This document shows positions 3,792 to 33,145 of a stretch of 40,804 bases of DNA, one piece after another (position 1 is the first letter of the stretch; the number at the start of each line of letters is the position of its first letter). The position numbers were made by a program, and so were the translations under genes. The notes beneath the pieces were generated by a model. That model was given only the letters and a program-made list of their open reading frames with translations, did no database searches and was not told the origin of the DNA. This DNA comes from Candidatus Hadarchaeales archaeon (GTDB lineage: Archaea > Hadarchaeota > Hadarchaeia > Hadarchaeales > JAWBSP01). The stretch covers positions 1 through 40,804 of the forward strand of contig JAWBSP010000011.1 in NCBI GenBank assembly GCA_038842485.1, given 5' to 3'.

Positions 3792-4654
3792 GGCAACCGG
3801 CCGTCGCGGGGCAGTTCTACGAGGGAACGAAAGAGGGATTGCTCAAGCAGATTGAGTGGTGCTACAAGCATCAGATCGGGCCGCGGAAGCTTCCGGAGGT
3901 GAGGGAAGGCCCCCGTTCCCTTCTGGGCCTGGTTTCACCCCATGCGGGATACATGTACTCGGGCCCGGTTGCCGCCCACGGTTTTGTGGAGCTTGCCGCT
4001 GACGGAAGGCCGGATTCCTTCGTCATCCTCGGCCCCAACCATCACGGGCTTGGTTCGGGAGTCTCGCTCAGATCAGTCGGAAGGTGGAGGACCCCACTTG
4101 GCGAGGTTCTGATAGACACTTCTCTCGCAAAGGAGATCCTGAAGAACTCCGATCTCATCGACGACGAGGAGATGGCTCATCTATATGAGCACTCCATTGA
4201 GGTTCAACTCCCCTTCCTCCAGCACCTGTATGGGGAGATCAAGTTCGTCCCCATCTCGATGATGCTCCAGGACCTGAGGACAGACCTGGAAGTTGGCCGG
4301 GCTGTGGGGGAGGCCTGCCGCGGTAAGAACGTGGTGGTGATAGCCTCAACGGATTTCACCCATTACGAGCCCCACTCACAGGCCGTCAGAAGGGATCAAA
4401 TGGCGATCAAGCGAATCTTGGAGCTTGACGCTCGAGGGCTCGTTGAGACTGTTGAGAGGGAGGGACTGAGCATGTGCGGTTACGGACCCGTTGCTGCCAT
4501 GCTGGAGGCAACAAGCCTTATGGGGGCAAGAAAGGCAAAGCTCTTGAAGCATGCCACCTCTGGGGAGACCTCGGGCATGATGGGGGAAGTGGTGGGATAC
4601 GCCTCTATAGCGATTTACAAGCAAGCTTCCAGCGAGGAATTTTCTACTTTATAA
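3788..4654 (+). CDS. MEMO1 family / AmmeMemoRadiSam system protein B
   Basis: RQPAVAGQFY, PHAGYMYSG, GPNH, EHSIEVQLPFLQ, STDFTHY, MCGYG and VVGYAS motifs. Confidence 0.95.
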   Translation: MRQPAVAGQFYEGTKEGLLKQIEWCYKHQIGPRKLPEVREGPRSLLGLVSPHAGYMYSGPVAAHGFVELAADGRPDSFVILGPNHHGLGSGVSLRSVGRWRTPLGEVLIDTSLAKEILKNSDLIDDEEMAHLYEHSIEVQLPFLQHLYGEIKFVPISMMLQDLRTDLEVGRAVGEACRGKNVVVIASTDFTHYEPHSQAVRRDQMAIKRILELDARGLVETVEREGLSMCGYGPVAAMLEATSLMGARKAKLLKHATSGETSGMMGEVVGYASIAIYKQASSEEFSTL

Positions 4655-4655
4655 A
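4648..4655 (+). promoter_or_regulatory. Putative TATA box for the Cas2-like ORF / repeat array
   Basis: TTTATAAA about 25 nt upstream of the ATG at 4680, consistent with a leaderless archaeal transcript. Confidence 0.4.
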
Positions 4656-4679
4656 AGCAGCCATCCCAAATCCCTCGAA

Positions 4680-4888
4680 ATGAGAAACGTGCGAACGTTC
4701 GCAATTACGTGATTTATGACTTCAAAGGCAAGGCCCCGCGCAGCCTCTACTCCTTGCGTGAGAAGCTGGAATCGCTCGGGTTGGCGAGATGGATTCAGTA
4801 CAGTGTCGGGAGGTCGGGAAGTTGGAGGTGCCTTGGAAATAGCCAACTTCTGCGTCAGCGTGGGGCGAAAGCCTACCTCATGTGGTAA
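4680..4888 (+). pseudogene. Small Cas2/VapD-like (ferredoxin-fold) protein, apparently frameshifted
   Basis: Frame 4706-4888 reads YVIYDFKGKAPRSLYSLREKLESLGLARWIQYSV...LLRQRGAKAYLMW*, matching the Cas2-like pattern hhhYDh...G..xQxSV. The ATG at 4680 (MRNVRTFAI) is one frame off; GTG 4709 gives a 59-aa ORF. Confidence 0.45.
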
Positions 4889-5328
4889 AAGTTTGAGCTT
4901 GGGTAATTGCGAACGTTCGCATGTTCTGCCGGGTTTCACGATTTCCTCAGCTTGGAAGTGCGAACGTTCGCACCCTTTTGGCGACCCCGTTTTTGCCGAA
5001 AAATCTGGCTGGGGAGGGAGTAGGCATTTGCGAACGTTCGCACACTGTCTAGCTCAGCAGTTTGATTGAGGACTCGAGCTTTAAAAAGTGATCCATGTTG
5101 CGAACGTTCGCATCTTCCGACAGAACCCGAATGTTTTGGCTTGAGGAACTAGAGAGCCTCAGAGGTGGTTCCTATTGTGAACGTTCGCGTGTTTGTGAGT
5201 TCGAGAATCTCTCTGAAAGATTTCGGCCTCGAGTTGAGGTGTTGCGAACGTTCGCACCTCCAATGGGACCCACTGTTTTACAGGAAAAATCTAGGGTTGG
5301 TGAGGTAGGGGCATTGCGAACGTTCGCA
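4690..5328. repeat. Array of 14-bp palindromes TGCGAACGTTCGCA (8 copies)
   Basis: Perfect copies start at 4690, 4908, 4959, 5029, 5099, 5243 and 5315; a 2-mismatch copy (TGTGAACGTTCGCG) starts at 5176. Start-to-start spacings are 218, 51, 70, 70, 77, 67 and 72. Confidence 0.95.
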
Positions 5329-5591
5329 CTTTTCTTAAGTCCCGACCCTCCACCAAGGTTGTGTTAGAGTTTGGAGAGTGACCAAAAACTAGAGGTTGAT
5401 TGAGTCTTCTCGAGGGGAATTGCTCTCAAATCAAAATAGGAATGAGCAGACCAATTGTAGGAGCTTGGGAGCGTGATAACCAGTAAGTGCAGCCTTTCAG
5501 CTTGGGGAGAAAGGTTCCGCAAAGGCGTGAGTAAAGCCCATCGAAAATTGATGATACGGAGTTTTATTAGCAGTTGCGAAACCCCTAAAGA

Positions 5592-13405: not shown

Positions 13406-13423
13406 GTGGCGAACGTTCGCCAC
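13406..13423. repeat. Dispersed copy of the array palindrome (GTGGCGAACGTTCGCCAC, 18-bp perfect palindrome)
   Basis: Shares the 12-bp core GCGAACGTTCGC with the 4690-5328 array. Confidence 0.8.
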
Positions 13424-13556
13424 CCCTCCCCTGGGTTTTGAGCGAGCCCTTGTAAGAAGGTGAGTTCGAGCAAGTACACATACATGCCAGCACCTAGCAG
13501 TCGGGTAAATCGTACCAGTGACTGTTTCTTAAACAGTCGGAAAGCTAAAAATGTGT

Positions 13557-13631
13557 GGGCCCGTAGCTTAGCCAGGTTAGAGCGCTCGGCTGATAACCGG
13601 GAGGTCGAGGGTTCAAATCCCTCCGGGCCCA
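13557..13631 (+). tRNA. tRNA-Ile (GAT)
   Basis: Acceptor stem GGGCCCG/CGGGCCC plus discriminator A; anticodon arm CTCGG-CTGATAA-CCGGG; T-loop GTTCAAATC; no intron; CCA not fully encoded. Confidence 0.97.
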
Positions 13632-13861
13632 CCCGTGTGATAACTAAAAGTAGAGGATTAGATGATTCAAGACCCGTGGCTTGATAACGTCAGAAACGCC
13701 AGAACTCGAGAGTGTTTTCAACGGTCAAACCTGCGTTGGGAGGGGGACCAAGCACGGTTTGGTTCTGAAGGTGGTTCATGTGCACACCATAGGTTAAAAG
13801 GTTAGGTAGGGCTTCTCTCAGGATTCCTGTACCATGGACATCATCAACTTGGTCTGAAATT

Positions 13862-32850: not shown

Positions 32851-32987
32851 GCAGGATACCTCCTGGAATACTCGAATAATATATGAAGATATTCCAATAA
32901 AAAGCTTTCTGAGAGGGAAACTAAAGCGAGAAAAACACCTTGAAAAGGCCCTTGTTCCCCGAACCGACAAAAATGGAGGAAGAAGTT

Positions 32988-33068
32988 CACGGACGTTCGA
33001 TCTTCGGAATCCCCCTGTTTTTGTTTGAAAATCTGGCTTGAAGGTAGAGGGCATTGCGAACGTTCGCA
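32988..33068. repeat. Dispersed unit of the TGCGAACGTTCGCA array (degenerate palindrome, spacer, perfect palindrome)
   Basis: Perfect copy at 33055-33068 and degenerate core CGGACGTTCG at 32990-32999. The spacer shares CCC..TGTTTT..GAAAATCTGG..GGTAG..GGCAT with spacers of the main array. Confidence 0.85.
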
Positions 33069-33145
33069 TGTTTGGTTAATCTGGGGTTCGAGAGTTTCAG
33101 TCCCCGAGCATGGTGCGGTAGTTGAAATAGGAAGAGGAAAGGTGA

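Follow-up and report, generated by a model that had tools for sequence, protein, structure and literature searches.

A decayed Cas2-superfamily gene with a palindrome array in a Hadarchaeales genome, and its candidate origin as a mobile palindrome-binding cassette

We analysed a stretch of 40,804 nucleotides (nt) of Candidatus Hadarchaeales archaeon (contig JAWBSP010000011.1, positions 1 to 40,804 of the forward strand; hereafter the window), in which the remains of a small gene are followed by a regularly spaced array of short palindromes. The remnant is a damaged copy of a gene for a protein of 80 amino acids (aa), of which an intact paralogue (P0001) is present on another contig of the same genome, C23. 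P0001 and its relatives form a distant branch within the Cas2 superfamily, not associated with CRISPR and outside the curated Cas2 family, and across genera the gene and the palindrome belong together. We give an even chance to the reading that positions 4621-5585 are a decaying copy of a mobile cassette, the Cas2-fold protein of which binds the palindrome as an operator.

Relatives of P0001 were found in 12 of 61 Hadarchaeales genomes, representing 6 of 19 genera; these genomes are kin, many of them incomplete, and all counts are descriptive. Outside this genome the exact 12-mer core of the palindrome lies beside the gene at 10 of 11 loci (E<=1e-9), the exception (L014) being a copy with 51% identity and an in-frame stop; the original prediction had named intact homologues never associated with such repeats as an outcome that would speak against it, and the loci show the opposite. 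Eight loci have a whole reading frame, and there one site lies at the start of the gene and another directly past its stop, 218-224 bp apart, with a further copy (exact or with one or two mismatches) 52-70 bp beyond the tail site in five of the eight. The exact core occurs in 26 of the 61 genomes, i.e., in all 12 with the gene and in 14 of the 49 without it, at 1-18 copies per genome, and a reversed control pattern in 1 of the 61. The head site is exact in the eight intact orthologues compared, while their pairwise synonymous differences range from 0.20 to 0.74 and reach saturation; the palindromes do not vary there and are thus under a constraint beyond coding. Of the 28 pairs of these orthologues, 27 have a ratio of non-synonymous to synonymous substitution (dN/dS) of 0.08-0.35 and one is saturated; such purifying selection, together with the intact paralogue, shows that the gene is real. 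Common to the paralogue and the orthologues of other genera is also an arrangement of cTTATAAAg, a gap of about 26-34 nt, and ATG.

The window locus lies between a MEMO-like gene, which ends at 4654, and a radical S-adenosylmethionine (SAM) gene that starts at about 5592 (Table 1). The TATA-like box, the ATG at 4680, the open reading frame (ORF) with its stop at 4888, the peptides EVGKLE and ALEIA and the palindromes of the original prediction are all present, although the ATG at 4680 is out of frame with the YVIYDF of the ORF. From GTG 4709 to the stop at 4886-4888 this ORF reads (M)IYDFKGKAPRSLYSLREKLESLGLARWIQYSV..., and no start codon lies in frame 5' of the GTG. The window copy (locus L016) is 55% identical to P0001 across residues 7-71; set against the intact gene it is short of one base each after about 4810, 4826 and 4852 and of three after 4887, and by the single-base losses the pieces of the protein have been spread over all three frames, EVGKLE and ALEIA being encoded in the two other than that of the ORF. 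The suggestion that a protein of about 70 aa had been frameshifted here is thus borne out, and so is the decay of this copy, given the gaps, the strain variants described below and the missing in-frame start. In the array, successive copies are 51, 70, 70, 77, 67 and 72 bp apart, and the degenerate copy carries two changes in the 14-mer. With up to two mismatches allowed, the window contains 11 occurrences of the 12-mer core, whereas 100 shuffled versions gave a mean of 1.08 and a maximum of 5 and none reached 11, which excludes chance; two of the exact copies lie away from the locus, at 13409 and 33056.

Table 1. Features of the palindrome locus and related sites in the window (a dot marks features without strand)
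Feature	Position	Strand	Remarks
Strain-variable block with pseudogene and array	4621..5585	.	Metagenome contigs diverge at 4620/5586
TATA-like box TTTATAAA	4648..4655	+	24 nt 5' of ATG 4680; putative leaderless archaeal promoter layout
Pseudogene of 80-aa Cas2-superfamily protein	4680..4888	+	Longest surviving ORF GTG 4709..4888 (59 aa)
Head palindrome TGCGAACGTTCGCA	4690..4703	.	Within first codons of pseudogene
Tail palindrome (array unit 1)	4908..4921	.	19 nt past pseudogene stop
Palindrome array, 7 copies	4908..5328	+	4908, 4959, 5029, 5099, 5176 (degenerate), 5243, 5315
Solo head GGCGAACGTTCGCC with cassette leader/promoter, without gene	13409..13490	-	Aligns with region 5' of intact copy on C23
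Isolated unit (type A stretch between a degenerate palindrome, first, and an exact one)	32985..33073	+	79% identity to unit 4950-5050

The genome as a whole contains 18 exact copies of the core. One of them lies beside the intact paralogue on C23, where a TATA-like box is followed after 26 nt by the ATG, a palindrome lies within codons 8-11, and a near-exact palindrome stands directly 3' of the stop. Further damaged copies of the gene are frameshifted (C2), reduced to a C-terminal fragment (C21) or truncated at the 5' end (C9), the last heading a second array of five palindromes. In the dead copies the palindromes have remained exact, both of them on C2 and seven of eight in the window, which suggests their retention for a trans-acting factor.

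Whether the frameshifts might stem from the assembly had been raised as a matter for the raw reads, and contigs of hot-spring metagenomes from four studies, aligned to the window, reveal the gaps as variants within the population. A minority allele with a C inserted behind 4829, adjoining one of the gaps, accounted for a depth of 8.3 out of 39.7 in run X1 and of 2.3 out of 8.99 in run X7; a contig from X1 fuses 4620 to 5586, omitting 965 bases, and contigs from X5, X6 and X7 continue into unrelated sequence beyond 4620 or 5586. The frameshifts are therefore population variants and not assembly errors, and the block 4621-5585 differs among strains. Loose contig ends at 4887, considered as a better-preserved allele, were rejected because they match the paralogue on C9. 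A comparison within the genus did not define the borders of the insertion: the gene order of G001 differs, and the assembly of G002 is broken at this spot, its contig ending 120 nt past the MEMO-like gene (L025/L023), with a gap of Ns before the radical-SAM gene. Such gaps would be expected in G002 if a similar repeat array there remains unassembled. The final 11 codons of the MEMO-like gene in the window (4621-4654) fall inside the strain-variable block, and the orthologue in G002 stops directly past ...AIYK; it seems, from this comparison, that the inserted block supplied a new stop and lengthened the MEMO-like protein.

The relationship of the protein to Cas2 is remote and was recovered by structure and profile comparisons. 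Neither P0001 nor the window ORF matched any Pfam or NCBIfam family at E<=10, VapD and PaaX included, and P0001 has no transposase or HUH family match in Pfam. A word-indexed search of 5.8 billion proteins yielded nine relatives with 71-98% identity, all unnamed or "hypothetical", and a profile search of 1.84 billion representatives yielded 62 proteins at E<=1e-3, mostly of about 90-100 aa with an additional N-terminal helix. The AlphaFold2 model of P0001 (predicted local distance difference test, 87.7; predicted template modelling (TM) score, 0.75) has the order β1-α1-β2-β3-α2-β4 (E9-17, H24-35, E39-43, E46-49, H52-64, E68-76). When it was compared with the PDB by Foldseek, 9 of the first 14 listed matches were Cas2 or Cas1-Cas2 chains (TM 0.41-0.57, E 5e-3 to 5e-2 for the best Cas2 matches), two more, 3exc and 2ivy, are Sulfolobus Cas2 proteins, and other ferredoxin-like folds (DUF77, UreE, PII-like) were mixed among the matches. 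The sole Pfam family that recurs in the relatives is the Cas2 family PF09827, found in 9 of 14 (best E 0.0017) and in 25 of 57 (best E 1.1e-5). Aligned by hhalign with 12 canonical Cas2 proteins from Hadarchaeales genomes, the narrow family scored 95.2% probability (E 2.5e-8, over 36 columns of the first half only) and the wide family 94.0%; Y16-D17 and Q43-x-S45 were paired with the invariant Y-D at the end of β1 and the Q-x-S in β2 of Cas2. D17 is invariant in 14 sequences, and the Asp and the Ser are each conserved in at least 90% of 57 members. A prediction of two protein copies in complex scored 0.21 against a mark of 0.42 and is evidence neither way. Matches of P0001 to designer repeat proteins in a PDB sequence search were additive and judged spurious, the A1 profile gave one non-significant match to an enoyl-CoA hydratase in the PDB, and the ESM Atlas returned unnamed clusters only, with scores <0.9.

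Of the Cas2/VapD-like assignment in the original prediction the Cas2 part therefore stands, as a remote relationship, whereas no VapD or PaaX chain is among the PDB profile matches. The absence of cas1 was also confirmed, as no Cas1 (PF01867) was found in this genome (943,141 bases in 27 contigs, 56.6% G+C, 88.9% complete); a six-frame family search of it gave no canonical Cas2 at E<=1, it contains no CRISPR, and the neighbours of the pseudogene are housekeeping genes. Canonical Cas2 is present in 18 of the 61 relatives, with a distribution unlike that of the P0001 family. The protein thus resembles CRISPR Cas2 (PF09827) in size, in the order of its secondary structure elements, in the Y-D at the end of β1 and in the Q-x-S in β2, but it fails the Pfam model, aligns over 36 columns, stands without cas1 or CRISPR, and is paired with a short perfect palindrome.

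Between the palindromes of the array lie stretches of 37-63 nt, which fall into a few recurring types. Type A units (n=7; 3+1 in the window and three on C9) share 72% mean column identity and a run of four to six Ts in each, and type B units recur three times; all seven type A and all three type B units are oriented alike relative to the gene remnant, and each of the two arrays stands behind a decayed gene copy, of the same subtype in both cases. In a unit-level DNA search of the 61 genomes, type A was confined to this genome, apart from four short matches elsewhere (E about 0.006-0.009). The repeat-spacer array of the original prediction did not survive these results: CRISPR arrays have direct repeats of about 23-50 nt and unique spacers, whereas here the common core is 14-16 nt long and the stretches recur. 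We read the array as probable tandem copies of the tail unit (the palindrome with its 3' stretch) rather than as acquired spacers. An RNA gene in the stretches was considered and rejected, because RNAalifold predicted only the pairing of one palindrome with the next, with compensatory changes in 0 of 14 pairs and no conserved internal fold.

Related subfamilies carry palindromes of their own. Within the same genome a second palindrome, TTGCGCACGTGCGCAA, has five exact copies within 470 bp on C3 and a single one on C1; a paralogous small Cas2-like ORF is enclosed by the last two exact copies on C3, which are 232 bp apart. (This region of C3, about 1640-2235, also holds several degenerate copies, the ORF lies just 5' of a folD-like gene, and the copy on C1 is at 79513.) The wide family is present in 30 of 66 genomes of the phylum, and of 20 loci from other subfamilies, 9 show a perfect palindrome, 14 nt or longer, no farther than 300 nt from the gene; 11 such near-gene palindromes were counted against a mean of 1.13 and a maximum of 5 in 200 shuffles, with a density of 0.67 per kb near the genes and 0.12 per kb far from them. 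Five further palindrome types were found in this way, each perfect through its centre, and since all seven types share this symmetry, a symmetric duplex target fits better than a hairpin loop. In a subfamily adjacent to the deoxyhypusine synthase gene, the TATA box TTTATAAAG has a 16-nt palindrome 7-8 nt upstream and a half site 7-8 nt downstream, before the ATG (both at three of three loci). The same palindrome has 1-3 copies in 6 of the 61 genomes, its other sites being intergenic (one conserved between two genomes) or in coding regions; we take the latter to be chance, as their letters encode a conserved peptide. At these three loci (L015, L068 and L069 in G024, G044 and G063) the 85-aa protein encoded after the deoxyhypusine synthase gene bears the automatic public annotation CRISPR-associated Cas2, the context is one of conserved housekeeping genes with no CRISPR nearby, and the palindrome flanks the TATA box. 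This annotation of the sister protein is probably misleading.

The cassette appears to have been mobile in relatives. When genera are compared, their DNA is similar only across the cassette, from about 60-130 nt 5' of the head site until 10-80 nt beyond the tail, and the flanks differ. In one genome (G034) a 14-mer, GTACGTATTTAGCT, has nine exact copies, and convergent pairs of it bound a 475-bp cassette, MITEs (miniature inverted-repeat transposable elements) of about 178 bp and an element of about 2.8 kb, which encodes an IS66-family DDE transposase (PF03050, E 4.6e-29) and an IS110-family transposase; the cassettes bounded in this manner are L005, L008 and L074. Direct repeats of 8 bp flank the cassettes L005 and L074 as well as the transposase element with its adjacent MITE (L116), and a target duplication of this length is a trait of the IS66 family. 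At L116 (G034:C53:1200-5300) the element adjoins a MITE of about 180 bp that belongs to the same family, and one 8-base target repeat is present in three copies, between the two and on either outer side. We read the cassette of these relatives, on the strength of its terminal repeats, as the likely cargo of a non-autonomous IS66-type element, which would account for its patchy, multi-copy spread. The likeness to IS66 and its MITE or passenger derivatives thus lies in the shared 14-nt terminal repeats and in the 8-bp repeats at three elements; the cassette as cargo is new, and the window copy shows no recognisable terminal repeats.

A locus beside a tRNA gene in genus g8 was seen in several states: G051 and G054 have it complete; in G057 the gene segment lies inverted between its two palindromes with respect to the flanks on both sides; in G060 the gene is precisely absent between the head and tail sites; in G058 everything between the first and the third site is gone and one degenerate site is left; and in G042, G043, G046 and G056 nothing of the cassette is seen. 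The breakpoints of the better-resolved variants fall at copies of the palindrome. G014 and G011 were considered as empty sites and rejected, because on alignment they contain degenerate palindrome remnants and a clean insertion is not proven.

According to the mechanism that we favour, the cassette would be specific to Hadarchaeales and consist of a promoter, the gene for the 80-aa Cas2-fold protein and a cognate perfect palindrome, which is placed over the start of transcription and translation, again past the stop, and then in tandem units of palindrome and T-run stretch. The protein, probably as a dimer, would bind the two-fold symmetric palindrome as double-stranded DNA; from the position of the head site we propose that its occupancy leads to autorepression, and the tail, the array and the solo heads may be further binding sites, served in trans by the intact paralogue on C23. 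We infer the binding, the dimer, DNA rather than RNA as the target, the repression and the role of the array; recognition of duplex DNA is suggested by the central symmetry, the position at the TATA box or the start, the change of palindrome along with subfamily, and the exact sites in dead copies. The likeness to a repressor with its operator is one of position only: in the orthologues, whose layout is that of leaderless genes, the site starts at the ATG, just as archaeal repressors have operators at the TATA box or the transcription start and the palindromes here flank the TATA box or cover a leaderless start. The DNA-binding domain of papillomavirus E2 is a dimeric reader of a palindrome with a ferredoxin-like β-α-β-β-α-β fold, and we know of no archaeal regulator with a Cas2 fold.

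Several observations weigh against this mechanism. To our knowledge Cas2 is not a sequence-specific regulator, and the conserved Asp and Ser, which Cas2 nucleases use, are not obviously needed by a mere repressor. In the structural comparison no Foldseek hit in the PDB reached E<=0.001, and P0001 fails the Pfam Cas2 model. Five to eight sites at intervals of about 70 bp downstream of a gene are unusual for an operator; a long palindrome near the gene is missing at 11 of the 20 loci from other subfamilies, and some palindromes of relatives are found within conserved coding genes or between 3' ends that converge, and not in promoters. As to mobility, the MITE copies L117 and L118 have no 8-bp duplication and L008 matches at five of eight bases, an IS66 transposase was not found in this genome (88.9% complete), and clean terminal repeats are missing from the window copy, repeat-like remnants being present only near the copies on C23 and C9.

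The strongest alternative, to which we assign a clearly smaller share of belief, makes the Cas2-like protein an endonuclease or recombination factor with specificity for the palindrome; its cutting and rejoining would invert, delete or stack segments that palindromes delimit, and the arrays would be such stacks. It stays alive through the conserved Asp and Ser at the catalytic positions of Cas2 and through the complete, inverted and gene-deleted states of the g8 locus at the palindromes; moreover, a fully symmetric site has no direction and fits both inversion and deletion, and the palindromes have stayed exact while the gene decays. There is also a precedent in BPSL1038 of Burkholderia, a stand-alone Cas2-like endonuclease of double-stranded DNA outside CRISPR (PMC10491678). 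Such stand-alone Cas2/VapD-like nucleases are similar in having a Cas2 fold outside CRISPR and in retaining the Asp at the catalytic position, but they have no sequence match here, and the accessible text on BPSL1038 describes no cognate palindromes or arrays (PMC10491678). The head and tail sites, however, are also direct repeats of 21-25 nt, by which a deletion is feasible without a special enzyme, and a single inversion over evolutionary time could arise by ordinary recombination. With all type A and type B units co-oriented, tandem duplication is a better fit than free inversion; cleavage at 18 genomic sites would make such a nuclease costly, and a protecting methylase was not seen; and the promoter-flanking sites of the sister subfamily favour regulation over a nuclease. 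The more specific proposal that the protein is a minimal, Cas1-independent site-specific cutter and joiner that inverts, excises and stacks segments between palindromes, i.e., an integron-like or proto-CRISPR builder of arrays, we consider improbable; if true, it would show how an ancestor of Cas2 could have used palindromic repeats before its recruitment to CRISPR adaptation.

Weaker than the nuclease or recombination reading, and in our view doubtful, is a target at the RNA level, in which the gene and the array would be co-transcribed from the promoter of the cassette, the palindromes would pair or form hairpins, and a Cas2/VapD-like RNase would bind or cut them, either as a self-limiting control of its mRNA or as a type III-like toxin with a repeat RNA as antidote. 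Some Cas2 and VapD proteins are RNases; at two loci (the window and C9) the array lies 3' of the gene and shares its orientation, five of the eight whole-frame loci of orthologues have the extra site beyond the tail, identical palindromes are able to pair along their whole length, and arrays that survive the loss of the gene could act as an antidote in trans. The sites of the sister subfamily, however, flank the TATA box and lie mostly outside the transcript, and the units have no conserved fold and no covariation beyond the trivial pairing of palindromes; these two points make the RNA reading the weaker one. In addition, ToxI-type antidotes consist of uniform repeats, whereas the array units vary in length and sequence, and the T-runs of type A would stop archaeal transcription early. 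The likeness to type III toxin-antitoxin systems (ToxIN) is thus that of a small nuclease-like gene adjoining a tandem repeat array, which here lies downstream and not upstream of the gene and has heterogeneous units of 51-77 nt. We attach next to no credence to a CRISPR-like adaptive array with a Cas2-only adaptation module, although the regular spacing of about 70 bp, the Cas2 relative heading the array and the promoter upstream recall one, because the stretches between the short repeats are mutually related and recur in other arrays, which contradicts it, and because cas1 and canonical cas2 are missing from the genome.

The cassette may also be set beside the repetitive extragenic palindromic (REP) sequences and bacterial interspersed mosaic elements (BIMEs) with their REP-associated tyrosine transposases (RAYTs), in which a small gene is likewise flanked by palindromes that are also dispersed and regularly clustered in intergenic regions, with alternating linker types. 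RAYTs, however, are HUH-Tyr enzymes of roughly at least 150 aa that act on imperfect hairpins, whereas the protein here has 80 aa and a Cas2 fold, the palindrome is perfect and loopless, and 1-18 copies per genome are far below the number typical of REP sequences.

The genes in the window are archaeal in kind and include, besides the MEMO-like and radical-SAM genes, those for enolase and ribosomal protein S2. Across the window, searches with Rfam (gathering thresholds) and ARAGORN found tRNA-Ile alone and no match in the array. The solo head at 13409-13490 sits 148 nt upstream of this tRNA gene (13556-13634) and is directed away from it, toward an ORF for a small membrane protein. Similar solo heads lie 5' of host genes in G031 (one of them polB-looking) and G022, and at L050 (G031:C37) a solo head adjoins what appears to be the 3' part of a tRNA gene; this one may be the attachment-site remnant of an integrated element.

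We found no description of the family or of its palindromes in the literature searched, which did not extend to subscription papers and supplements. What is new is a stand-alone Cas2-superfamily clade of Hadesarchaea with cognate palindromes, the window itself holding a dead copy and an array of sites; the finding would also account for intergenic repeats of one class, unassembled and strain-variable, in hot-spring genomes of Hadesarchaea. Cas2 is universal in CRISPR adaptation and its ancestral activity is unclear, and the clade described here is outside CRISPR and under purifying selection. That relatives have their own matching palindromes suggests that the protein recognises that sequence, and the subfamily-specific palindromes turn this into a testable claim that a Cas2 fold reads a specific sequence. 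If true, this would add to those of archaea a DNA-binding regulator (or site-specific nuclease) of a new kind, in which the regulator and its sites are spread together by a transposon, and it would bear on how palindromic repeats and Cas2 came together.

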